Below, in pieces: positions 6,126 through 27,202 of a DNA stretch of 64,000 bases. Source of the stretch: an uncultured Acidobacteriota bacterium (GTDB lineage Bacteria > Acidobacteriota > Thermoanaerobaculia > UBA5066 > Gp7-AA6); contig CAVXRK010000009.1 in assembly GCA_963764025.1 (NCBI GenBank), positions 600,881 through 664,880 on the forward strand, in the 5' to 3' direction. The stretch's first letter is position 1, and the number at the start of each line of letters is the position of its first letter. The notes beneath the pieces were generated by a model. It was not told the origin of the DNA. It did not search any database and saw only the letters and a list, made by a program, of their open reading frames with translations. Both the position numbers and the translations under genes were made by a program.

Positions 6126-7238
6126 TCACTCGGCCCGCAGGACGAACCGGATTCGCACGGTTTTCCGGGTGGCGACCGGGCCCCCGGCCGTGCGGGCCGG
6201 CCGGTAAACCCACTGGTGCACCGCATCCGCTGCCGCCTGGGACAGGCCCAGCGGAAGCCCTCGAACGACCTCCACGTTGGTGACTTTTCCCTTGGCGTCG
6301 ATGGCGACTTCGAGCTCGACTGTCCCGTCGATGCCGGCCCGGCGCGCCAGGTCCGGGTACACCGGTTCGACGCGCTTGAGCACGACCGGCCCCTCCGCGA
6401 GGCCCGGCGCCGCGGGTTCGGCCGGCGGGGCCGGGGGCGCCTCTCGCCCCGCCGTCGGCTCGTCCGGCTCGGGCGCCAGGTCCTCGTCCGGCGGAGGCTC
6501 CTCCTCGAGGTCCAGGATCGTGAGGTTCTTGAGCGCCTTGACCGCGGCCGGGGTGATCGCGGGCTCCCTCGGGTCGGGCGGGATGAGATCGACGGCGGCC
6601 GAGCTGACGAACGCCAACCCCCAGGTCTTGTCCTTGAAGGCGAAGTAGGAATGGTCGACGGAGTGGATCGCGATGACGGTGCCCTTGGCGAGGCGGCCGC
6701 CGCGCGCGGCCAGCGGATAGGGCGCGAGGGCCACGTCCGCCGGCTCGCCGACGACGCCGTAGACCGGGGCGAAGGCGAGCAACGTTTTCTCCCGGCGCTG
6801 GCGGGCCTCACGGTCGGAGTCGCGCTCGATCGAGTCCGCGGGCACGAATCCCCGGCCCTTTCGGTCCGCCTCGATCTCGGCCCACGGCCCGCGGCCGCCG
6901 AACACCGAGACCTTCGTTCCGGCGGACAGCGTCTCGATCACTTCGCCGTCGGCCGCGGGCTGCCGGCGCATCGCGGTGCCGTCGAGCGTCACGTAGGCCG
7001 GCGTCCCCGACGCGTCGTCCGACGCCGCTCCCCCGCGGGGATGAAGGAGGAAGTCGACCGACAGGAGTACCGCGAGGATGATTCCCCCAAACGCCAGGAA
7101 CGGCCAGGCCTTGCCGAAGGAGCCGCGGGGCTCGGGCTCCGGCGCGGAAGCATCCGCCGCCGCCTTCTCTTTCTCCGGGTCCGGGACTTCGAGGTCCGGC
7201 GCGTCGCCGGAAACGAAGGGGACCTCCTGGTCCGTCAT
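6126..7238 (-). CDS. TonB-family energy transducer with an N-terminal transmembrane helix, two SH3b-like domains, a proline-rich linker and a TonB C-terminal domain.
   Basis: The real start is MTDQEVPF..., about 335 aa into ORF 6126..8240, and it overlaps the arcC stop as ATGA. The C-terminus reads VLKRVEPVYPDLARRAGIDGTVELEVAIDAKGKVTNVEVVRG, a TonB_C domain. Confidence 0.7.
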   Translation of the reverse strand: MTDQEVPFVSGDAPDLEVPDPEKEKAAADASAPEPEPRGSFGKAWPFLAFGGIILAVLLSVDFLLHPRGGAASDDASGTPAYVTLDGTAMRRQPAADGEVIETLSAGTKVSVFGGRGPWAEIEADRKGRGFVPADSIERDSDREARQRREKTLLAFAPVYGVVGEPADVALAPYPLAARGGRLAKGTVIAIHSVDHSYFAFKDKTWGLAFVSSAAVDLIPPDPREPAITPAAVKALKNLTILDLEEEPPPDEDLAPEPDEPTAGREAPPAPPAEPAAPGLAEGPVVLKRVEPVYPDLARRAGIDGTVELEVAIDAKGKVTNVEVVRGLPLGLSQAAADAVHQWVYRPARTAGGPVATRKTVRIRFVLRAE

Positions 7239-8209
7239 CGCGAGGGGCGGATGAAGGTCCCGGTCTTCCCTTCCAGGGCCTCGGACAGCGACTCGGCGCG
7301 GGTCACGAGCACCTCGTGCCCGCCGGCTTCGACGAACCGGATGGCGGCGTCGATCTTGGGTCCCATGCTTCCGGGAGGGAACTGGCCCTCGGCGAGAAGC
7401 TTCCTCGCCTCCGCCACGTCGATCGCGGCGAGCTCCGTCTGGGTGGCCTTGCCGAAGTCCTTCGACACCCGGTCGACGCCCGTGAGGATGATGAAGAGGT
7501 TCGCCGAGAGCGACGCCGCGAGCATGGACGCCGAGTAGTCCTTGTCGATGACCGCCTCGACCCCGCGGACTTCGCCCTCGTCGGTCACGACGACCGGAAT
7601 GCCTCCGCCGCCCGCCGCGATCACGATGTGGCCGCGGTTGATGAGCGCCGCGGCGACCTCGACGCCGCGCACGGCCCGCGGCTTGGGCGACGCCACCACC
7701 TTGCGCCAGCCGCGGCCGGCGTCCTCGACCATCGTCCATCCCGCGGTCTTCGTCAGGAGATCCGCGCGGTCCTTCGGGAAAAAGGGCCCGACGGGCTTCG
7801 AGGGCTTCAGGAACGCCGGGTCCGCGGCGTCGACTTCGACCTGCGTCATGATCGTCACGACCTGTTTGCGGAACCCGGCGCGCGGCAGCTCGTTGTCGAA
7901 CGCGAGCTCGAGCAGGAACCCCATCGACCCTTCCGTCTGCGCCACGCAGAAGTCGAGCGACTGCGGCGGCACCTTCTCGGCGGCCTCTTCGGCCTGGATG
8001 AGGATGTTGCCGACCTGCGGGCCGTTGCCGTGGACGACGATGAGCTCGTAACCCTTGCCGATGATCGGGATGAGCTTCCGGACCGCGTCGCGCGCCCGCT
8101 CGAGCTGCTCGGCCGTCGTGCCCGAGTCCTCCGGCCGCAGCAGCGCGTTGCCCCCGAAGGCGACGACCGCGAGCGGGCGGACGAAGGAGAAGAAGGGGGT
8201 GGGGTTCAC
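7235..8209 (-). CDS. arcC: Carbamate kinase.
   Basis: 324 aa: VVAFGGNALL...VVHGNGPQVGN...IAAGGGGIPVV. There is a 38-nt gap to arcA. Confidence 0.85.
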   Translation of the reverse strand: MNPTPFFSFVRPLAVVAFGGNALLRPEDSGTTAEQLERARDAVRKLIPIIGKGYELIVVHGNGPQVGNILIQAEEAAEKVPPQSLDFCVAQTEGSMGFLLELAFDNELPRAGFRKQVVTIMTQVEVDAADPAFLKPSKPVGPFFPKDRADLLTKTAGWTMVEDAGRGWRKVVASPKPRAVRGVEVAAALINRGHIVIAAGGGGIPVVVTDEGEVRGVEAVIDKDYSASMLAASLSANLFIILTGVDRVSKDFGKATQTELAAIDVAEARKLLAEGQFPPGSMGPKIDAAIRFVEAGGHEVLVTRAESLSEALEGKTGTFIRPSR

Positions 8210-8246
8210 CGCCCGTCCGCCGTCTGCCGTCCGCCGTCACCGACCC

Positions 8247-9542
8247 TCACGGCTTCACGTCCTCCCGCACGAGCGGCATGGTCATGCAGCGCGGGCCGCC
8301 GCGCGCGCGGGAGAGCTCGTGCGCGGCGAGCAGGATGACGTACTTCTTGCTCGGCTTCCAGAGCTCGAGCTCCTCGCGGCCGAGCAGCAGGTCCGCTTCG
8401 TCCACCACCGAGTACCCGGCCTTCGAAAGCTGGGCGGCCGTCGCCTCATTCCGGTCGTACATGATCACCACCCCGGGCGCCAGCGCGAAGGCGTTGGCAC
8501 CGTCGGTCCATTGCTCGCGCCGTTCGGCGATCGGATCCTCTCCGCCGCAGCGGATGGGCTTGACGTCGAGCTTGGCGGCCTTCAACGCCGAGAGCAGGTC
8601 CTTTTCGGTCGTCCACGTGATTTCGCGCTTGGTGAGGTCGCATTCGTAGACATCCGCCTCTTCCGCGCCGTCGGGCAGGATCATCGGCCCGTACACCAGG
8701 CACTCTTCCTGCGAGATCATCGTAAATACCGTGTCGAGGTGCATGAACGAGCGCTCGGGCGGGATCGCGACGACGATGATGCGCTTGATCGGGGACTTCA
8801 GCTTCTTGAACGACTCCGCCAGCCGCTCGATCGTCGTCTTCTCCGTCCGCTCCGAGTAGCCGATCGCGAGCAGGTCCTCCCGCAGGACGAGCACGTCGCC
8901 TCCCTCGAGCGTCGGGCGCATCCGCGCGTAGGCCGAGGGCTTGGAGTAGTCGGCGGAGAACTCCTGGAACCAGAACTTGCCGCCCTCGGGGCTCGCAAAC
9001 CGGGGATGGAGGGACATCACGTAACCCGAGAGGAGTGGCTCGCGCAGGCGCGCCGCCGTCGCCATCGAGCCGCGCACCGACCGCTCTCCCACCACGACGA
9101 GCGGATCGCGCTGGAAGAAGTAATTCGGAATCGGCGGCAGCCAGTAGAGCTCCGAGGCCGCGCTCGCGATGTCCGGGGCCGGCTTCTCGATTCCCGCGAT
9201 CAGGGCCGAGGCGAGCTGCTCGGCCGTCAGGTCCCGCAGCCGGTTGTTCATGTCCGCGTCCCAGCCGAGGATGGTGCCGAGGTCGTCCAGGATCGCGCCC
9301 CGCTGCTCGGGGACGTCCAGGACTTCCTCGAGCAGGTCCTGGACTTCCAGGACCTCGTCGGCGACGTACCCGAGAACCTGCTGGAATCGCCGGTGCTCCT
9401 CGCGGGCCCGGTTCCCGTAGAGGATGTCGTCGAAGAGGAGCTCCTCCATCATCGACGGGACCATGCGGTCGATCTCCGGCCCGGGCAGGTGCACCAGGAC
9501 GGACTTCAATTTGCCGATCTCGGAAGTGACTTTGAGGCTCAT
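8247..9542 (-). CDS. arcA: Arginine deiminase.
   Basis: 431 aa with the ADI family motifs FMHLDTVF and the catalytic GGPRCMTMPL. Confidence 0.9.
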   Translation of the reverse strand: MSLKVTSEIGKLKSVLVHLPGPEIDRMVPSMMEELLFDDILYGNRAREEHRRFQQVLGYVADEVLEVQDLLEEVLDVPEQRGAILDDLGTILGWDADMNNRLRDLTAEQLASALIAGIEKPAPDIASAASELYWLPPIPNYFFQRDPLVVVGERSVRGSMATAARLREPLLSGYVMSLHPRFASPEGGKFWFQEFSADYSKPSAYARMRPTLEGGDVLVLREDLLAIGYSERTEKTTIERLAESFKKLKSPIKRIIVVAIPPERSFMHLDTVFTMISQEECLVYGPMILPDGAEEADVYECDLTKREITWTTEKDLLSALKAAKLDVKPIRCGGEDPIAERREQWTDGANAFALAPGVVIMYDRNEATAAQLSKAGYSVVDEADLLLGREELELWKPSKKYVILLAAHELSRARGGPRCMTMPLVREDVKP

Positions 9543-13308: not shown

Positions 13309-13611
13309 ATGAAAATGCATCGGATTCTCGCGTCGATGGCGGTTCTGCTTCTCGCTCTCTGCGTCAATGCTTCCGCCAAGGACCGGCCTCATGAAGGCAA
13401 GATCGTCAGCATCGATTCGTCCATGCAGTCGATGGTGATCCAGGGAGAGGACGGCGATCAGTGGACCGTCTACTGGACCGAGACGACCAAGCTGAAGAAC
13501 GAGCTGACGATGACGGAGCTCAAGGCCGGCGACTCCGTCCACTTCGACTACGTCGAGAAGGACGGCAAGATGTTCGTGACGGAGCTTCGCCGCACGCACA
13601 AAGCCGACTGA
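13309..13611 (+). CDS. Small secreted periplasmic protein, CusF-like (putative Cu(I)/Ag(I)-binding OB fold).
   Basis: 100 aa with signal peptide MKMHRILASMAVLLLALCVNASA. The mature part (GKIVSID..SSMQSMVIQGEDGDQW..KAGDSVHFDYVEKDGKMFVTEL) aligns by eye with CusF, including the M..M..W motif. A GGAGGTG RBS sits 5 nt upstream. Confidence 0.55.
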   Translation: MKMHRILASMAVLLLALCVNASAKDRPHEGKIVSIDSSMQSMVIQGEDGDQWTVYWTETTKLKNELTMTELKAGDSVHFDYVEKDGKMFVTELRRTHKAD

Positions 13612-13703: not shown

Positions 13704-14633
13704 ATGACCTCGTCGACTCCCGCGATCTCGTGTCGCGGCCTGCGCAAGTCCTACGGCGACGTCAAGGCCGTCGACGGTCTCGATCTCGAGGTCCACCCCG
13801 GCGAGTGCTTCGGCCTCCTCGGACCCAACGGCGCCGGCAAGACGACGACGATCGAGATCCTCGAGGGGTTGACGACCCCGGACTCCGGCGAAGTCACCGT
13901 GCTCGGACGGGCCTGGGGCAGCCACGAGCGGGAGCTCCGCGAGAGGCTCGGGATCTCGCTCCAGGAGAGCCGGCTGACGGAGAAGCTCACGGTCTACGAG
14001 ACGCTCGAGCTCTTCCGATCCTTCTACGCCCGCGGCCGGTCCCCCGAGCAGCTCCTGGCGGACCTCTCCCTCGAGGAAAAGCGCGACGCGCGGGTCGGCA
14101 AACTGTCGGGCGGCCAGCGCCAGCGGCTCGCCGTCGCCTGCGCCCTCGCGGGCGACCCGGAGATCCTTTTCCTCGACGAGCCGACCACGGGCCTCGACCC
14201 GCAGAGCCGCCTCCAGCTCTGGGAACGAATCGCCGTGCACAAGGCCGCGGGGCGCACGGTGCTGCTGACGACGCACTACATGGAGGAAGCCGAGCGGCTC
14301 TGCGAACGGGTCGCCGTCGTTGACCACGGACGGATCATCGCGCTCGGTACGCCGGCGGAGCTGATCGCGCAGCTCCACGCGCCGCACATCATCGAGTTCT
14401 CGACCGAGCCGCCGGTCTCCCAGGCCTTTCTCGCTCGCGTGCCGGGCGTCGGCGAGCCGCGTCAACGCGACGAGCGGTGGCTTCTCCCGGCCTCCTCGCT
14501 CGCCCAGGCCGTGCCGGCGCTGCTTTCGGCGCTCGACGCGGAGAGGGCGAAGCTCGTATCGCTCTCGACTCATCGGTCGACGCTCGAGGACGTGTTCATC
14601 GCGCTGACGGGCCGGGAGCTGCGCGATGAGTGA
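13704..14633 (+). CDS. ABC transporter ATP-binding protein (ABC-2 exporter type).
   Basis: Walker A GPNGAGKTT, signature LSGGQRQRL, Walker B ILFLDEPTTGLD. Confidence 0.9.
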   Translation: MTSSTPAISCRGLRKSYGDVKAVDGLDLEVHPGECFGLLGPNGAGKTTTIEILEGLTTPDSGEVTVLGRAWGSHERELRERLGISLQESRLTEKLTVYETLELFRSFYARGRSPEQLLADLSLEEKRDARVGKLSGGQRQRLAVACALAGDPEILFLDEPTTGLDPQSRLQLWERIAVHKAAGRTVLLTTHYMEEAERLCERVAVVDHGRIIALGTPAELIAQLHAPHIIEFSTEPPVSQAFLARVPGVGEPRQRDERWLLPASSLAQAVPALLSALDAERAKLVSLSTHRSTLEDVFIALTGRELRDE

Positions 14634-15672
14634 GGAGCGCCTCCACCCGCTCTACGCGCTGACGCGCACGCGCATCCTCGAGTTCGTCCGGGAGCCCGAG
14701 GCGCTCTTCTGGGTCTTCGCCTTTCCGATCCTCATGGCCGTGGTCCTCGGCTTCGCGTTTCGCGACCGGCCGCCGGATCCCGTCTCGGTCGGCGTCGTCG
14801 CCGGCCCGTCGGCTCCCGAGATCTCCGAGGCGCTGGCGAAGTCCGAAACCGTCCGCCCGGCCACCCTGGCCACGCTCGCCGAGGGCCTCGAGCGGCTGCG
14901 GACGGGCAAGATCACGCTCCTCGTCGAGGAAGGGCCGGAAGGGCTCGTCTACCACTTCGATCCAACGCGCCCGGACGCGCGCCTCGCCCGGCTCGAGGTC
15001 GACGCGGCGATCCAGGTCTCGCGCGGCCGGCGCGACCCGACGCCCCCCAGAGTCGAGCTCGTCCACGAGAAGGGCTCCCGCTACATCGACTTCCTGCTGC
15101 CCGGAATCCTGGGCCTGAATCTCATGGGAACCGGGATCTGGGGAATCGGCTTCTCGATCGTCAACACGCGCCTGAAGAAGACGCTCAAGTTGATGGTCGC
15201 GACACCGATGCGAAAGAGCGACTACCTCCTCGCCCAGATGCTGTCGCGCTTCTTTTTCCTCGTCATGGAGGTGGCGCTCATCCTGGCCTTCGGCGTCGCG
15301 GCGTTCCACGTCCCGATCCGCGGGCCGCTCTGGGTGCTCGCCCTCTCGACCGTCGTCGGCTCGGTCTGCTTCGCGGGCCTGGGACTGCTCGTCGTCGCCC
15401 GCGCGCGCACGCTCGAGGCCGCGAGCGGCCTGATGAACCTCGTCATGGTGCCGATGTGGCTGCTTTCGGGCGTCTTCTTCTCCTCCGAGCGCTTTCCGAA
15501 GGCCGCGCAGCCGGTCATCCAGGCCCTGCCCCTCACGGCCTTGAACAACGCGCTCCGGGGGGTGATGCTGGAGGGGTGGGGGCTCGTCGGCGTCGCCCCC
15601 GAGCTGGCGATCCTCGCGGTCTGGGGGGTCGTCGCCTTCGCCGTCGCCCTGAAGATCTTCCGCTGGCAGTGA
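14626..15672 (+). CDS. ABC-2 family transporter permease.
   Basis: 348 aa with six predicted TM helices. It overlaps the ATPase stop by 8 nt. Confidence 0.85.
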   Translation: MSEERLHPLYALTRTRILEFVREPEALFWVFAFPILMAVVLGFAFRDRPPDPVSVGVVAGPSAPEISEALAKSETVRPATLATLAEGLERLRTGKITLLVEEGPEGLVYHFDPTRPDARLARLEVDAAIQVSRGRRDPTPPRVELVHEKGSRYIDFLLPGILGLNLMGTGIWGIGFSIVNTRLKKTLKLMVATPMRKSDYLLAQMLSRFFFLVMEVALILAFGVAAFHVPIRGPLWVLALSTVVGSVCFAGLGLLVVARARTLEAASGLMNLVMVPMWLLSGVFFSSERFPKAAQPVIQALPLTALNNALRGVMLEGWGLVGVAPELAILAVWGVVAFAVALKIFRWQ

Positions 15673-15802
15673 CGCCCCGGGAGGGCATATTCTCGGCGCC
15701 GGTTTCGTCGTTTCGTATTCCAATCCCGGTCCGGGCGGAAGAGGAGCGTGCGTCATCGAAGTTCTCATCGTCAATCAGAACGAGGTCCCTCGCCTCCTTC
15801 CG

Positions 15803-16762
15803 GTGAAGGACTGCGTCGACGTCATGGCGCGCGCCTTCGCCGCCCTGGCGCGCGGGGAGGCCGAGATGCCGGTCCGGCAGATCCACTGGCTCCCGGGCAA
15901 GACCGGCGCCCTCGGCCTCATGCCCGCCCACCTCACGGGGCTCGCGGCCGTGGGCGTGAAGGCCGTGACGTTCTTTCCCCGGAACGAAGGCACCGACATC
16001 GACTCCCACCAGGGTGCGGTGCTGCTCTTCGAAGCCGGGCGCGGGCGGCTCCTGGCGATGATCGACGCCACGTCGATCACGGCCGTACGCACGGCCGCGG
16101 TCAGCGGGCTCGCCACGCGCCTGCTCGCGAAAGAAGATGCCGGAGATCTCGCGATCGTCGGGTCCGGGGTGCAAGCCCGCACCCACCTCGAGGCAATGCG
16201 CGCCGTGCGAACCATCCGCCGGGTCCGGGTCGCGAGCAAAACTCTGGCCCGCGCGAAGAGCTTCGCCGAACGCGAGGGCAAGCGCCACGCGATTGCGATC
16301 ACCCCCTGCGCCTCCGTGCAGGAAGCGGTCACGGGCGCCGACATCGTCTGCACCGTGACCTCTTCGCGCGAGCCGGTGGTGCGCGGGGAGTGGCTCCAGG
16401 ACGGTGCGCACGTCAACGCGGTCGGCTCGAGCGTCGCGTCCGCCCGGGAGGTCGACACCGCCGCCGTCGTACGCTCCCGCCTCTTCGTCGACCACCGCGC
16501 CTCCGCGCTCCAGGAGGCGGGCGACTTCCTGATCCCGCGCGGGGAGGGCGCCGTGACCGACGCCCACATCCGCGGCGAGCTCGGCGAGGTCTTGAACGGC
16601 GCCGTCCCGGGCCGCACGTCGCCCTCCGACCTCACGCTCTTCAAGTCCGTCGGCCTCGCCATCGAGGATGTCGCCGCGGCGCAGCACATCTACTCGAAGG
16701 CGCGCGGCTCCGGCTTCGGCCAGTTCGTCGAGTTCGGTGGGAGCCGCCGCGACGCCGATTGA
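15803..16762 (+). CDS. Ornithine cyclodeaminase/mu-crystallin family protein. The N-terminus probably extends upstream; see findings.
   Basis: 319 aa with an OCD Rossmann fold (DLAIVGSGVQARTHLEAM). The in-frame upstream codons 15752-15802 encode VIEVLIVNQNEVPRLLP, which matches OCD N-termini but contains no ATG, GTG or TTG. Confidence 0.8.
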   Translation: MKDCVDVMARAFAALARGEAEMPVRQIHWLPGKTGALGLMPAHLTGLAAVGVKAVTFFPRNEGTDIDSHQGAVLLFEAGRGRLLAMIDATSITAVRTAAVSGLATRLLAKEDAGDLAIVGSGVQARTHLEAMRAVRTIRRVRVASKTLARAKSFAEREGKRHAIAITPCASVQEAVTGADIVCTVTSSREPVVRGEWLQDGAHVNAVGSSVASAREVDTAAVVRSRLFVDHRASALQEAGDFLIPRGEGAVTDAHIRGELGEVLNGAVPGRTSPSDLTLFKSVGLAIEDVAAAQHIYSKARGSGFGQFVEFGGSRRDAD

Positions 16763-17708
16763 GCCCGTCGGCCTCGACGCGATCCGCGAAGCCCGAGCCC
16801 GGATCGCCGGGACGGCAGTCCGGACGCCGCTTCTGCCGATCGCGCTCGAGTCGGGCCGGGAAGTCTGGCTGAAACTCGAGTGTCTCCAGCCGATCGGCTC
16901 CTTCAAGCTGCGCGGCGCCGCCAATGCGATGGCCCTCGCCCGGCCCGAGACCCTCGCCCGCGGCGTGTGGACCGCGAGCGCCGGGAACATGGCGCAGGGC
17001 GTGGCCTGGTGCGCGAGAAGGGCCGGCGTCCCCTGCACGGTCATCGTGCCCGACCACGCGCCGCAGGCGAAGATCGCCGCGATCGAGCGGCTCGGGGGCC
17101 GCGTCGTCAAGGTGCCCTTCGAGCGCTGGTGGCAGGTCTTCCTCGATCACGCGTACCCGGGAATGGAGGGACTCCTGATCCATCCCTTCGCGGACCGGGG
17201 CGTCATCGCCGGCAACGGCACGATCGGCCTCGAGATTCTCGACGAGCTTCCGGACGTCGACTCCGTCCTCGTTCCCTACGGCGGGGGCGGACTGTCCTGC
17301 GGCATCGCCTCCGCGATCCGGGCCCTTCGTCCGGAGGCGAAGGTCCATGCCTGCGAGGTCGAGACGGCGGCGCCGTTCGCCGCGGCTCTCGCCGCCGGAC
17401 GACCCACCGTCATCGAGTACACCCCGAGCTTCGTCGACGGGATCGGCGGACGGGGCGTGCTCGCCGAAATGTGGCCCCTCGCTTCGAGCCTCCTCGCGGG
17501 GTCGCTCGTGGTCTCACTCTCGGAAATCGCCGCCGCGATCCGGCTCCTCGCCGCGCGGGCGCGTGTCGTGGCGGAAGGAGCCGCCGGGGCTTCGGTCGCC
17601 GCCGCGGCGTCCCCGCGCGCGCCGGAAGGCAGGCTCGTCTGCGTCGTCTCCGGCGGCAACATCGACGCCGCCGTGCTCGCCTCGATCCTTTCGGGCGCGA
17701 CGCCCTAG
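16737..17708 (+). CDS. PLP-dependent threonine/serine dehydratase-like enzyme (fold type II, EutB-like).
   Basis: SFKLRGA lysine motif, GNMAQGVAW, GGGGL. The likely GTG start at 16737 overlaps the OCD 3' end. ORF 16668..17708 has an R/S-rich leader. Confidence 0.8.
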   Translation: MGAAATPIEPVGLDAIREARARIAGTAVRTPLLPIALESGREVWLKLECLQPIGSFKLRGAANAMALARPETLARGVWTASAGNMAQGVAWCARRAGVPCTVIVPDHAPQAKIAAIERLGGRVVKVPFERWWQVFLDHAYPGMEGLLIHPFADRGVIAGNGTIGLEILDELPDVDSVLVPYGGGGLSCGIASAIRALRPEAKVHACEVETAAPFAAALAAGRPTVIEYTPSFVDGIGGRGVLAEMWPLASSLLAGSLVVSLSEIAAAIRLLAARARVVAEGAAGASVAAAASPRAPEGRLVCVVSGGNIDAAVLASILSGATP

Positions 17709-17756
17709 GTTTCGTTTCTCAAGACGTTGTTCACCGGCGATCCCCTAACAAGAGAA

Positions 17757-17881
17757 CCCTCTCCCCCGAAAGGGGGAGAGGGCAGGGTGAGGGGGTTGGG
17801 ACCAACTGATCAGATGGATCGCTGCGGGCCGATCGAGCCTGGGGAGCCCTCACCCCAACCCTCTCCCGCCGGGAGAGGGGG
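17757..17881. repeat. Family B palindromic element, copy 1 (~125 bp). The left end is CCCTCTCCCCCGAAAGGGGGAGAGGGCAGGGTGAGGGGG and the right end is CCCTCACCCCAACCCTCTCCCGCCGGGAGAGGGGG.
   Basis: Read directly. It is intergenic between the dehydratase and pagL-like genes. A second copy is at 32266-32389. The spurious ORF 17727..17936 translates through it. Confidence 0.8.
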
Positions 17882-23472: not shown

Positions 23473-24551
23473 TACGAGGCCGAGTCGTCGTACTCCTGGC
23501 GGTACAGGAGGACCCACGGCGCAGCGCCGCGCATCTTGTCGATCCGGATCCGGTGGGGCCCGGGCTTGAGCGAGGGCTTGGCGAACGTCAGGACGTAGTG
23601 GCCCTTGACGGCCTCGCGCACGACGCCCATCGCCCACTCCGGGAACGTCTCCGTCCGCATGTAGAAGCCGCCGGTCTCGAAGGAGAGCTGCTTCAGGCCG
23701 GCGCCGAGCTGGTGCGCGCCCGAGCTGATGTCCAGCGTGAAGACCGGAGCCTGCGCGGACGCAAGGGCCATCTGTGCCGTCTCGAGATCCTGCGTCGACA
23801 CGAAATGCCCCATGCCTCCGTTGGACGCCGTTTCGGACAACGCGTTCCAGCGGCCCACGGCGTATCCGAAGAAGAGGATCGCCTTCGACCCCGGCAGCGG
23901 CCGCAGCGCCCGGCCGATCGCCGTGAGGCCCTTTTCCATCGAGGTCGCCGCACGCTCGTCCTCATGCGACAGGTGGGCGCCGATCGAGAGCGTGGGCGGG
24001 TTCTCGGAACGCTTCGTCTCTTCCTTGCGCGGCGCCGACTCGATCGCCTTCCGGATCACGGCCCGGTCCGACGTGAAGTCCTGGGAGAGCCACAGCCGGG
24101 AGCCGAAGACGAGAAGCGCGACCTCGTCGGACGGCCCGAGCGTGTCGAGGAAATTGAGGGCCTGCCGCTTCATCCGCATCAGGCCCTCGTCCTTCTGGCC
24201 CTCGATGTGGGACTGAAAGACCATCACGAAGAGGCGGCCCGCCGGCGGGACGGGAGCCCCGTCGTCGGCCCCGGCGGCGGGCGCGTCGGTGCGGACGAGG
24301 GTCGCGCTCCGGCTGGGCAAGGCGGCGGAGAGGGACCCTTCCCACTCCAGGGACTCGATCGAAACGGGGTTGTCGTCGACGAAGAGCTGAAAGTCTTCCT
24401 TCTTGAGGTCGGGCACGACGCGACCCTGCTTGTCGGTCACGTGCAGCGTGATCTCGACCCGCGAGACCGTGACCTGCTCCTGGACCGGCTCCTGCCCGCG
24501 CAGGCCGGCCGCCGCGAGCCCGATCAGCGCGGCGGCGAGACGGCGCTTCAC
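23472..24551 (-). CDS. Secreted von Willebrand factor type A (VWA) domain protein.
   Basis: The GTG start at 24551 overlaps the ddl stop as GTGA. Signal peptide VKRRLAAALIGLAAAGL. The VWA fold is present (LFVMVFQSH..., a MIDAS-like DxSxS context). The upstream 139 aa of ORF 23472..24968 are R/G-rich noise. Confidence 0.7.
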   Translation of the reverse strand: MKRRLAAALIGLAAAGLRGQEPVQEQVTVSRVEITLHVTDKQGRVVPDLKKEDFQLFVDDNPVSIESLEWEGSLSAALPSRSATLVRTDAPAAGADDGAPVPPAGRLFVMVFQSHIEGQKDEGLMRMKRQALNFLDTLGPSDEVALLVFGSRLWLSQDFTSDRAVIRKAIESAPRKEETKRSENPPTLSIGAHLSHEDERAATSMEKGLTAIGRALRPLPGSKAILFFGYAVGRWNALSETASNGGMGHFVSTQDLETAQMALASAQAPVFTLDISSGAHQLGAGLKQLSFETGGFYMRTETFPEWAMGVVREAVKGHYVLTFAKPSLKPGPHRIRIDKMRGAAPWVLLYRQEYDDSAS

Positions 24552-25627
24552 GACAGCTCCGCCGGCGGCGCGGTCCGCAGCCGCGCGCGGCGGTCGCGCC
24601 GCTCGAACGCCAGCCGGATGAGCTCGTCGAGAAGAGCCGGCAGCGACAGGCCGCTCGCCTCCCACAGTTTCGGATACATCGACATCGCCGTGAAGCCCGG
24701 AAGCGTGTTGACCTCGTTGACGAGCAGCCTCCCGCCGGCGCGCTCGAGGAAGAAGTCCACCCGCGCCATCCCCGAGAGCCGGCAGGCGCGGAACACCCGG
24801 ATCGCCATCGCCTTCGCCGCCTCCGCGACCGCCGCCGTCACGGGCGCCGGCACCAGCAGCTTCGCCTTGTCGTCGCGGTACTTGTCGTCGTAGTCGTAGA
24901 ACTCGCGCCCGGGCACGATCTCGCCCGGCACCGTCGCCCGGGGAGAGTCGTTGCCGAGGACGGCGCACTCGAGCTCGCGCGCGTCGATCCCCTCCTCGAC
25001 CAGGGCCCGCTCGTCGTAGGCGAGGGCCGCCTCGACCGCCGCCCCGAGGTCCTCCCAGCGCTTGACCTTCGCGACGCCGACCGACGAACCGCCGTTGCAG
25101 GGCTTGACGAAGACCGGAAGCCCCACTCCGGCCCGCTCGAGCTCTTCTCTGGCGCCCGACGCGTCGGCCGCCGCATCCGCGACCGCCGCGCGGGGCGTCG
25201 GGATCCCGGCGTCCCGCATGAGCGCCTTGAAGACCGACTTGTCCATCCCCACGGCGGAGCCGGTCACGCCGGCGCCCACGTACGGGACGCCGAGCGTCTC
25301 GAGAAAGCCCTGCAGCACGCCGTCCTCGCCGCTCGTTCCGTGGATGATCGGGAAGACGACGTCGACGCGGCCCGGGGCGATCTCGGAGGGAACGAGCGCG
25401 CCCGTGCCCTGGTCGCCGCGGCGGAACCGCTCGGGGACGGGGCCGGCCGCGAGCAGCCGGCCCGACTCGGCGGCCGGCAGGAACCGGCCGTCCTCCCCCA
25501 CGGCGACGGGCACGACTTCGTAACGGGCCGGGTCGAGGGCGCCGGCGATCGTGCGGGCCGAGATCCGCGAGACCTCGCGTTCGACGGACCGGCCTCCGAA
25601 GAGCACGGCGACCCGGGTCCGGCTCAC
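24548..25627 (-). CDS. ddl: D-alanine--D-alanine ligase.
   Basis: The GTG start overlaps the serA stop as GTGA. Reads RVAVLFGGRSVEREVS...IIHGTSGEDGVLQG...EVNTLPGFT (ATP-grasp fold). Confidence 0.9.
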   Translation of the reverse strand: MSRTRVAVLFGGRSVEREVSRISARTIAGALDPARYEVVPVAVGEDGRFLPAAESGRLLAAGPVPERFRRGDQGTGALVPSEIAPGRVDVVFPIIHGTSGEDGVLQGFLETLGVPYVGAGVTGSAVGMDKSVFKALMRDAGIPTPRAAVADAAADASGAREELERAGVGLPVFVKPCNGGSSVGVAKVKRWEDLGAAVEAALAYDERALVEEGIDARELECAVLGNDSPRATVPGEIVPGREFYDYDDKYRDDKAKLLVPAPVTAAVAEAAKAMAIRVFRACRLSGMARVDFFLERAGGRLLVNEVNTLPGFTAMSMYPKLWEASGLSLPALLDELIRLAFERRDRRARLRTAPPAELS

Positions 25628-27202
25628 CAGGTCACCAACCGGACCTCCTCGACCGCCGGCAGGGCGCGGAGGCGGTCGAGAACCGCGGCGGGCGGGGCCG
25701 AGTCGACCGCGATGACGGCCGCGGCGCGCGAGCCGTCGCCTCGGGCGAGCGAGAAGTGGGCGATGTTGACACCGGCTTCGCCGAGGACGGTGCCGACCGC
25801 GCCGACGACGCCCGGAACGTCGTGGTTGCGGATGAAGACCACGGTCCCCTCCGGGTGGAACTCGAGCGGAAGCCCGTCGACCTCGACGACGCGGGCGTCG
25901 CGCCCGATGAAGAGTGTGGCGTCGGCGCTGCCTTTGGACCCCGCCCCCGTGAGCGTGACGCGGATCGAGCGGGCGTAGGCGCCGGGCTCCTCGTGGCGCG
26001 TGTCGGAGACGGCGAGCCCCCGGTCGGACGCCATGTAGAGCGCGTTGACGTAATTGACGACGTCCGGCGTCTGGGCCTCGAGCGCTCCCTTGACCGCGGC
26101 GACGGCGACCGGCCGCACCATGTCCTCGGGCAGGCCCCAGGTCTCGACCGCCAGGCGCGTCAGGCGGCCGCCCGAGAGGGCCGAGAGGAAATGGGCGGTC
26201 CGCTCGGCCAGGCGCATCCAGCCGGCCGCGCCGCCCGAGTCCTTGGGGCCGCGAAACGGCAGGTTCACCGCCGGAACGTACGCCGCGCCGGCAAGGGCCT
26301 CGAGCAGGGCCTCGACGGTCTGGATCGAGACGCGCTCCTGGGCCTCGACGGTCGAGGCGCCGAGGTGCGGCGTCGCGACGACGTTCGGCGAGCTTCGGCA
26401 GGGGGTCGTCCGGCGCGGGGGGCTCGGGATCGAAAACGTCCAGGGCCGCCCCGGCGAGCTTCCCGCTCTTGAGCGCCTCGGTCAGGGCGACGCGGTCGAC
26501 GAGGCTTCCCCGCGCGACGTTGACGAGGACGGCCGAGGGCTTCATGAGGGCGAGCTCCGCCGGCCCGAGCAGCGGCTTTCCCTTCTCCGTTGCGGTCGAG
26601 TGGAGCGTGACGACGTCCGATTGCCGGAGGAGCTCTTCGAGAGGCACGAGCGGCACGCCCATCTCCTGGGCCTTTTCGACCGGGAGGAACGGGTCGTGGC
26701 CGAGGAGCTTCGCCTCGAAGGCCCGGCAGCGCGACGCGACGCGGGAGCCGACCTGGCCGAGGCCCACGATGCCGACGGTCTTGCCCGCGAGCTCGGAGCC
26801 GACGAACTTCGACTTCTCCCAGCGGCCCTGCGCCATCGAGGCGGCCGCCTCCGGCACGCGCCGCAGGAGCGCGAGGAGCACCGCGAACGTGTGCTCGACG
26901 GCCGAGACCACGTTGCCCGTCGGCGAATTGAGGACCATGACGCCGCGCGCGGAGGCCGCGGGCACGTCGACGTTGTCGACCCCGACGCCGGCCCGTCCGA
27001 CGACGGTGAGCTTCGGCGCCGCGGCGAAAAGGGCCGCGTCGACCTTCGTCGCGCTGCGGACGAGCAGCGCGTCGGCGTCCTTCAGGGCCGCGAGCAGCTC
27101 CTCGCGCGAGGCCCCGGCGATGTCGACGACCTCGTGCCCGGCCTTGCGCAGGAGCTCGAGCCCGGCACTCGAGACCTTTTCGGCGACGATGACGCGGCTC
27201 AA
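25624..27202 (-). CDS. serA: D-3-phosphoglycerate dehydrogenase (type I, with ASB and ACT domains), frameshifted in this assembly.
   Basis: The N-terminal 270 aa are in the frame of ORF 24548..27202, with a TTG start at 27202. The C-terminal ~215 aa are in ORF 25624..26268. A single extra base near 26390 separates DDPLPKL from PNVVATPHLGASTVEAQ. Confidence 0.85.

Follow-up and report, generated by a model that had tools for sequence, protein, structure and literature searches.

The stretch of DNA analysed here (the window, 64 kb with a G+C content of about 70%) comes from an uncultured Acidobacteriota bacterium and carries a gene for a protein of the ornithine cyclodeaminase (OCD)/mu-crystallin family followed, with an overlap, by a gene for a fold-type II pyridoxal 5′-phosphate (PLP) enzyme of the threonine/serine-dehydratase superfamily (Table 1). 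The pair lies behind the ATPase and permease genes of an ABC-2 exporter, and all four genes have a strong coding signal with a third-position G+C (GC3) of 0.86-0.94 in open reading frame (ORF) analysis. The two enzyme genes and their overlap, the SFKLRGA motif of the PLP enzyme and the upstream exporter had been noted in a preliminary description of the sequence and were confirmed by the ORF and Pfam analyses. Three public contigs carry the locus, two from ENA metagenomes and a short-read one from Logan, with protein identities of 98-100% (OCD 100%, PLP 99-100%), and the closest genome records to the window are metagenome-assembled genomes (MAGs) of the Acidobacteriota/Thermoanaerobaculia. The OCD-PLP pair is a distinct and widely conserved variant of a known theme, in which a PLP-dependent dehydratase is combined with an OCD-family reductase, and is neither a system for ectoine, beta-hydroxyaspartate or diaminopropionate nor tied to the ABC-2 exporter. 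No published characterisation of the pair was found in the literature.

Table 1. Genes and other features at the OCD-PLP locus of the window, and loci elsewhere that carry a second dehydratase paralogue (PLP2)
Feature	Position	Strand	Basis and remarks
ABC transporter ATPase, DrrA/NodI-type	13704..14633	+	Pfam ABC_tran 6e-33; TIGR01188 (drrA) 274 bits against a cut-off of 312
ABC-2 family permease	14626..15672	+	Pfam ABC2_membrane_3 2e-29; 8-nt overlap with the ATPase gene
Weak terminator-like hairpin, then T-rich tail	15694..15710	+	Consensus scan; between the ABC-2 permease and OCD genes
Shine-Dalgarno-like sequence GGAAGAGGAG	15737..15746	+	5 nt before the codon at 15752, 8 nt before ATC 15755; compared with relatives
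OCD/mu-crystallin-family gene, NAD(P)H-dependent imine (ketimine) reductase-like	15752..16762	+	Pfam PF02423 1e-78
OCD/PLP gene overlap, 26 nt	16737..16762	+	OCD stop TGA 16760-16762, PLP start GTG 16737; read from the sequence
Fold-type II PLP enzyme, threonine/serine-dehydratase superfamily, 323 aa	16737..17708	+	Pfam PF00291 2e-66
G+C-rich hairpin, 12 pairs, just past the PLP stop	17756..17783	unassigned	Terminator score for the convergent downstream gene
PLP2-OCD(-PLP) loci	L047:6021-8942, L053:5966-8933, L096:583-3597, L108:1224-2908		PLP gene follows wherever the contig runs on; that of L108 breaks off within the OCD gene

The OCD protein matches its superfamily model with 264.7 bits against a cut-off of 24 and has the Rossmann motif G120-S-G-V-Q-A. 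Its best solved relative is the Δ1-pyrroline-2-carboxylate (Pyr2C) reductase TlLhpI (6t3e, 6e-67) followed by mu-crystallin, a ketimine reductase (2i99/4bv8, about 1e-56), with identities of 42% to human mu-crystallin (CRYM), 40% to TlLhpI, 34% to the alanine dehydrogenase AfAlaDH and 28% to EutC of Paracoccus yeei. When the protein was aligned with TlLhpI, with residues assigned as in Watanabe et al. (2014), the catalytic tetrad R25-K53-R96-D289, which is common to TlLhpI and mu-crystallin, was found intact and invariant in 51 paired orthologues. The triad E56-D228-K232, proposed to act in cyclodeamination, is replaced by G38-S210-A214, the Gly and the Ser being as in mu-crystallin, while AfAlaDH has R52-D219-K223 at these positions (Watanabe et al., 2014). 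In place of the Asp of NADH-dependent members, which TlLhpI retains, the OCD protein has Ser145, conserved in 48 of the 51 orthologues, and after it a Lys or Arg (in 43 of them), a motif resembling the N-R of mu-crystallin with which NADPH is probably the preferred cofactor. Judged by these residues, the OCD protein is a reductase-type member of the family and not a cyclodeaminase.

Neither protein of the pair reaches the cut-off of any named NCBIfam equivalog model. For the OCD protein the scores were 140.5 bits against 350 for the true cyclodeaminase (PRK07589), 231 against 409 for the archaeal alanine dehydrogenase of AF1665 type (TIGR02371), 186 against 471.65 for EutC (TIGR02992), 160.6 against 500 for BhcD (NF045643) and 139.9 against 327 for SbnB (TIGR03944). 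The PLP enzyme scored 226.6/203.4 bits on the EutB models NF005680/TIGR02991 (cut-off 413), 188 against 411 on the IlvA model TIGR01124, 227 against 379 on TIGR01127 with a match covering 13-295 of the 380-position model, 195.9 against 453 on TdcB (NF006389), 166.5 against 550 on BhcB (NF045641) and 49.7 against 350 on SbnA (TIGR03945).

Membership of the PLP enzyme in its own superfamily is clear (PF00291, 225 bits against a cut-off of 35), with SFKLRGA containing the Schiff-base Lys57, the glycine loop GGGGL at 182-186 and S305-GGN all invariant in the orthologues. The protein ends with the catalytic domain and lacks a C-terminal ACT domain. The closest solved structures are those of serine racemase (4e-47) and TdcB (9e-43), and pairwise identity is 47% to P. 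yeei EutB, the closest named relative, and 36% to E. coli TdcB. In fold, length, absence of a regulatory domain, Schiff-base Lys and glycine loop the enzyme is like TdcB and serine racemase. At Ala82, invariant in 77 orthologues, it has the residue of dehydratases including TdcB; the aligned residue of human serine racemase is Ser84 (in S-S-G-N-H), the second catalytic base of that enzyme, and on this alignment the PLP enzyme does not carry the serine/aspartate racemase signature. It differs from TdcB in three features that are invariant in the 77 orthologues, paired or not, namely a Met in SAGN-M where other enzymes have His, the pair Trp131-Trp132 (WW), and AGNGT for AGQGT, all absent from EutB, TdcB, serine racemase and the PLP2 paralogue. 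In a phylogeny, the PLP family (clade motifs IGSFK, SAGNMAQG, WW and AGNGT) formed a clade apart from these four enzymes, with a gene from Aminobacter as the deepest branch. Trp132 aligns with Arg135 of human serine racemase, which in that enzyme is the ligand of a side-chain carboxylate, and this argues against beta-hydroxyaspartate or another amino acid with a carboxylate side chain as the substrate.

Conservation of the pairing was assessed in a scan of one genome per species that yielded 80 loci with PLP proteins 59-88% identical to the query, 75 of which had enough upstream sequence to assess pairing, taxonomy being that of each genome record. An OCD gene lay directly upstream of the PLP orthologue and on the same strand in 53 of the 75, spread over at least eight phyla. 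The paired loci belong to Acidobacteriota including Thermoanaerobaculia (21), Gemmatimonadota (15), Chloroflexota (6), Eisenbacteria (3), Bacteroidota (2), Actinomycetota (2), Chlorobiaceae (1), Armatimonadota (1) and Myxococcota (1), with one further MAG without a phylum label. In many of them the candidate PLP start is overlapped by the OCD stop, by 4 to 26 nt. Mean pairwise identity was 65% for the PLP proteins and 57% for the OCD proteins, with a correlation between the two distance matrices of r = 0.61, and the PLP tree departs from taxonomy with the unpaired copies falling partly in subclades of their own. A reverse search of metagenomes with the OCD protein gave 10 paired loci, and every OCD relative of at least 59% identity with readable downstream sequence (10 of 10) carried the PLP gene. 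Among plasmids in a collection searched for OCD relatives the highest identity was 46% with no close orthologue, and the one PLP orthologue found in a cultured organism, Gemmatirosa kalamazoonensis (67% identity), has no OCD neighbour. The adjacency of the two genes is more than chance, and they form a conserved but separable two-gene unit. The pair is real and tightly coupled, and none of the three outcomes which the preliminary description had named as fatal to a new pathway was found: the pairing is conserved, the PLP enzyme misses the IlvA models and has no ACT domain, and the OCD protein misses the cyclodeaminase model and has the triad replaced.

About 30 two-domain proteins, retrieved with a concatenated query, had been considered as OCD-PLP gene fusions and as such proof of coupling but were rejected as assembly indels. 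These apparent fusions were single sequences from single ENA contigs, many with stretches translated out of frame, and in L115 (6946-7000) and L116 (6883-6940) a normal OCD C-terminus and stop codon lay in the +1 frame exactly at the fusion junction. The fusion ORFs are probably indel errors of long-read assemblies. The PLP frame near the junction in L115 and L116 has no ATG, GTG or TTG, only a CTG overlapping the TGA stop (CTGA).

In the window, GTG 16737 is the sole PLP start near the point where the N-termini of the orthologues align, the only alternative being an ATG at 16668, 69 nt upstream, and it was also the start picked by gene callers on two identical public contigs. Since this GTG is the only fitting start the 26-nt overlap stands, and it suggests translational coupling of the OCD and PLP genes. 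The start of the OCD gene is more complicated. From the annotated GTG at 15803 a protein of 319 aa is predicted, while the conserved frame runs from 15752 (GTC) or 15755 (ATC) and gives about 335 aa; the 16-17 codons before GTG 15803 encode the conserved OCD N-terminus EVLIVNQNEVPRLLP, and family models and tblastn alignments reach into them. Six close relatives start the gene 51 nt upstream of 15803, at a GTG behind an AGGAGG-type ribosome-binding site. In the window and in three independent public contigs this GTG is the GTC at 15752 with ATC as the next codon, the in-frame N-terminal codons being kept and the ribosome-binding site GGAAGAGGAG intact. The annotated start thus cuts the conserved N-terminus short, with the true start probably at 15752/15755, and initiation may take place at ATC 15755 or an N-terminally shortened protein may be made from GTG 15803.

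The search for a third partner clustered all ORFs within 6 kb at the 80 loci and found no third gene conserved outside single lineages, which is why the unit is taken to comprise two genes; a neighbourhood survey of this kind had been proposed in the preliminary description, and it showed the pair itself to be conserved. The ABC-2 exporter precedes the pair in one setting only, a wider synteny seen at 15 acidobacterial genome loci and 8 metagenome loci, which have flanking housekeeping genes in common as far as their contigs extend. Here an adenylosuccinate-lyase-family (Lyase_1/ADSL_C) gene flanks the locus upstream in most of the 15 genome loci, and a formamidopyrimidine-DNA glycosylase gene flanks it downstream in all but L012, the contig of which ends shortly past the pair. 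In L032 and L055, of the same lineage, the lyase, OCD and PLP genes are kept and the exporter is absent (the glycosylase gene is present in L032; the contig of L055 goes no further than the PLP gene). As a functional partner the exporter was therefore rejected, being confined to a single acidobacterial lineage and missing from these two loci; it is a lineage-specific neighbour outside the conserved unit and is treated as unrelated. The same holds for the second candidate partner raised earlier, a gene at 13309-13611 (100 aa) that had been called CusF-like. Its product scored 22 bits on PF11604 against a Pfam cut-off of 27 with no NCBIfam match, so that the label does not hold, and by E-value the gene was detected only in the window-matching contigs L001 and L002 and the related genome L006. 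The product is secreted, with a weak sub-threshold likeness to CusF and DUF5666.

Other lineages have other neighbours. In Chloroflexota and Actinomycetota a gene for an aldo-keto reductase (AKR) lies directly upstream of the pair in seven genome loci, with a more distant AKR in L095; the loci at which the AKR was recorded directly upstream are L015, L045, L058, L073, L081, L065, L115 and L116 (for example L045:487-8966). A five-gene LIV-type amino-acid ABC importer is found near AKR-OCD-PLP where the surroundings were read (L045, L058, L073 and L115), and a class-V PLP enzyme, below the kynureninase and SufS cut-offs, occurs near the pair in L015, L045, L065 and L115. This AKR, importer and class-V PLP context is a larger lineage-specific cluster. 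Four loci have a three-gene variant in which PLP2, a second dehydratase paralogue with 36-41% identity to the PLP enzyme of the window and the motifs SAGNHAQAVAW and LAGAGT, is encoded directly upstream of the OCD gene. A Kbl/BioF-like enzyme gene stands beside the pair in two loci and a ThrE exporter gene adjoins one unpaired PLP copy, and these one ThrE and two Kbl-like neighbours are a hint of threonine. On the Aminobacter plasmids L084 (8216-9960) and L085 (8228-9966), in which the OCD gene is absent, the gene of a PLP relative of about 50% identity, which has GNM and WW as well, overlaps that of a GntR regulator. Beside it lie kynU, an ABC transporter and genes with the annotations salicylyl-CoA 5-hydroxylase, enoyl-CoA hydratase and acyl-CoA dehydrogenases. 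The presence of kynU beside this homologue and the neighbourhood of L115 suggested a link to tryptophan and kynurenine, which was set aside and stays a weak lead, the L115 'kynureninase' scoring 114 bits against 246 and its 'tryptophan 2,3-dioxygenase' 137 against 391, with the theme absent from most loci.

Among known systems the closest mechanistic precedent, which the preliminary description had not mentioned, is BhcB/BhcD of the beta-hydroxyaspartate cycle. The dehydratase BhcB yields iminosuccinate, which is converted to aspartate by the OCD-family BhcD, and bhcD is required in vivo. As at the locus studied here, a threonine-dehydratase-type PLP enzyme is combined with an OCD/mu-crystallin reductase, and an imine is turned into an L-amino acid with the nitrogen kept; no other precedent for the mechanism proposed below has been established by experiment. 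The arrangement differs in that bhcC lies between bhcB and bhcD and both BhcA and BhcC act with them, whereas here two overlapping genes stand alone. For EutB/EutC a dehydration followed by NADH-dependent reduction is so far a proposal. TlLhpI shares the catalytic tetrad with the OCD protein. Its partner is a 3-hydroxyproline dehydratase of the proline-racemase type, which has no counterpart here, and those who studied TlLhpI remarked on serine/threonine dehydratase genes flanking LhpI-type OCD genes.

By analogy with BhcB/BhcD and from the residues described above, the reading favoured here, if somewhat tentatively, is that the pair consists of a dehydratase making a 2-imino acid and a reductase that reduces it. 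The PLP enzyme would act as a beta-eliminating lyase (dehydratase). Its substrate would be an amino acid that has a primary alpha-amino group and, at C-beta, a leaving group; the likeliest candidates are beta-hydroxy amino acids whose side chain is uncharged, for example threonine, serine or something bulkier of the same type. Elimination would release an enamine/2-imino acid, and the OCD partner with its NADPH-type motif would reduce the imine, or a cyclic ketimine derived from it, to an L-amino acid before it is hydrolysed. The net result would be the reductive loss of the beta-substituent with retention of nitrogen, and the two overlapping genes would encode a self-contained, co-translated enzyme couple. 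The order of the reactions, the hand-over of an imine, the preference for NADPH and the kind of substrate are what we infer, while the families of both proteins, the intact catalytic residues, the missing racemase and cyclodeaminase signatures and the coupled adjacency across phyla are directly observed.

A number of observations weigh against the proposed sequence of elimination and reduction. The PLP gene has no OCD neighbour in 22 of the 75 assessable loci although its motifs are identical there, and in the reverse search eight OCD relatives at 49-58% identity came without the PLP gene, those unpaired copies that were examined adjoining housekeeping genes such as lpxI, lpxD and mutS; because both genes also occur singly, each enzyme can work alone. 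The correlation between OCD and PLP distances may be mere shared ancestry. Accessory genes vary by lineage and do not indicate a single substrate. The model nearest to the full-length OCD protein is PRK06141 (NF004793) for Pyr2C/Δ1-piperideine-2-carboxylate (Pip2C, P2C) reductases with 275.5 bits against 322, or 86% of the cut-off, and together with the identities to TlLhpI and CRYM this places the protein, by sequence comparison, nearest to the cyclic-ketimine reductases. These reductases prefer Pyr2C/P2C, which are not obtainable from a dehydratase acting on serine or threonine. In the strain of the window the OCD start codon is mutated from GTG to GTC, so that the reductase may be poorly expressed.

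The main rival to this imine hand-over has a real if clearly smaller likelihood and holds that the two enzymes are co-regulated but chemically independent, the PLP enzyme being an ordinary catabolic serine/threonine ammonia-lyase that yields a 2-oxo acid and ammonium, and the OCD protein a Pyr2C/P2C reductase or an amino-acid dehydrogenase (proline, lysine, alanine), so that adjacency would mean shared regulation in amino-acid catabolism with no intermediate passed on. The PRK06141 score, the Pyr2C reductase as best structural match and the frequent solitary copies of both genes are all in keeping with this, as is a gene upstream of the pair in L044 and L064 whose product scores above the cut-off for 1-pyrroline-5-carboxylate (P5C) dehydrogenase. 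TlLhpI also has weak alanine dehydrogenase activity, and its authors remarked that 2-oxo acids might come from the neighbouring dehydratases. Yet start/stop overlap coupling that persists in at least eight phyla would be unusual for unrelated enzymes, the invariant GNM, WW and AGNGT of the PLP clade are not those of TdcB, and in the neighbourhood clustering neither a proline-racemase-type hydroxyproline dehydratase nor a D-amino-acid dehydrogenase accompanies the pair. It is improbable that the two form an opine-type couple, in which the PLP enzyme would supply pyruvate or 2-oxobutyrate and the OCD enzyme would join this to an amine or amino acid by reductive condensation, giving an N-(1-carboxyalkyl) amino acid, or in which the reverse route would break such a compound down: the OCD family does include tauropine/strombine dehydrogenases and N-methylalanine dehydrogenase activity, a yeast OCD homologue is reported to carry out reductive alkylamination of 2-oxo acids, and the amino-acid-type importer stands beside the pair in Chloroflexota and Actinomycetota, but that importer is lineage-specific and genes for opine-related transport or regulation are not conserved alongside the pair. 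A shade less credible still is a true ornithine/lysine cyclodeaminase, with proline or pipecolate as its product, whose gene just happens to neighbour that of a short biosynthetic threonine deaminase. Public annotations do name the relatives 'ornithine cyclodeaminase' and 'threonine dehydratase', and about 6 kb upstream (7235-9542) there is a gene of the arginine deiminase (ADI) family (PF02274) along with a carbamate-kinase-like (AA_kinase) gene, a combination that would produce ornithine; the two are annotated only on the two window-matching public contigs. They are, however, on the minus strand and confined to the acidobacterial synteny, with no link to the OCD gene found, and the replaced triad, the low cyclodeaminase score, the unreached IlvA models, the absent ACT domain and the conserved adjacency all point away from this explanation.

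The preliminary description had called the pair EutC/EutB-like, and a role as EutB/EutC in hydroxyectoine catabolism is very unlikely. The two systems do share adjacent genes of the same two superfamilies, with a 4-nt overlap in P. yeei, and in its 47% identity to a genuine EutB the PLP enzyme bears the comparison out; the rest of it does not stand. EutB and EutC of the canonical ehu-eut-doe cluster on a P. yeei plasmid, included as a positive control, passed their models (EutB 450.6/422.1 bits, EutC 499.8) while both window proteins missed them. The gene order eutB-eutC is reversed relative to OCD-PLP, the OCD protein is nearer to Pyr2C reductase and mu-crystallin than to EutC, and EutB has GNHGR and AGQGT without WW in place of GNM, AGNGT and WW. 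A tblastn search of the 64-kb window with the P. yeei ectoine cluster returned only EutB-/EutC-type matches and generic ABC ATPase similarity, with no genes found there for EutA, DoeA/EutD, DoeB/EutE, the Ehu binding protein and permease or succinate-semialdehyde dehydrogenase (SSADH), so that the earlier statement that ectoine hydrolase, deacetylase and transporter are missing holds for the whole window. An identity with BhcB/BhcD itself, or with a 2,3-diamino-acid synthase of the SbnA/SbnB type to which the pair had also been compared, can be given as little credence. Both precedents do unite the two enzyme types, fold-type II PLP and OCD family, but all four models are missed by a wide margin, the comparison with SbnA/SbnB failing on both proteins, and Trp stands where an Arg would bind a beta-carboxylate. 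Genes for a BhcA-type aminotransferase, the BhcC aldolase and siderophore or nonribosomal peptide synthetase (NRPS) functions did not recur beside the pair in the clustering and in Pfam matches at the locus, with no sequence search aimed at them.

Of the pairs of PLP dehydratase and OCD reductase known so far, one has been demonstrated, in the beta-hydroxyaspartate cycle, and one proposed, in hydroxyectoine breakdown. A third separate pair with invariant active-site changes of its own in at least eight soil-dominating phyla suggests that the hand-over of an imine from one of these folds to the other is a general strategy in amino-acid metabolism, possibly offering a compact two-enzyme route to non-standard L-amino acids. 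Thousands of proteins labelled 'threonine dehydratase' or 'ornithine cyclodeaminase' are probably mis-annotated. If the substrate were threonine or serine, models of amino-acid turnover in uncultured soil bacteria would gain a nitrogen-saving, NADPH-consuming branch. It would go further, and is rather unlikely, to see in the pair a widespread unrecognised route by which soil Acidobacteriota, Gemmatimonadota, Chloroflexota and others use NADPH to convert a beta-hydroxy amino acid directly, by way of an imine passed from one enzyme to the other, to the deoxy amino acid, and the same doubt attaches to the substrates that such a route might use, which would be threonine, serine or a bulky or aromatic relative of these held by the invariant Trp-Trp pair, with 2-aminobutyrate, alanine or another product. 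Were this true, the pair would be a nitrogen-conserving module of amino-acid deoxygenation that extends BhcB/BhcD beyond one substrate, and it might act as a redox sink or protect against reactive enamines.

A sigma-70 promoter scan returned zero sites, and no Rfam family reached its gathering threshold in the whole window, for which reason a riboswitch or leader before the pair was rejected; near the pair the only Rfam matches were spurious microRNA matches on a hairpin. In the gap of about 80 nt between the ABC-2 permease and OCD genes, the terminator-like hairpin has a stem of just 5 bp and the number of such hairpins is not above that in shuffled sequence, and it is at most a hint of a terminator. 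The hairpin just past the PLP stop probably marks the end of the two-gene unit. It opens a long G+C-rich hairpin region (17756-17875), the site of the spurious microRNA matches, which lies between the PLP stop and a convergent PagL-like gene and is probably a terminator. Further downstream, 7-10 kb from the pair, the minus strand carries genes for a D-Ala-D-Ala-ligase-like ATP-grasp enzyme and a SerA-type phosphoglycerate dehydrogenase with an ACT domain (approximately 24300-27000, coordinates from L002).

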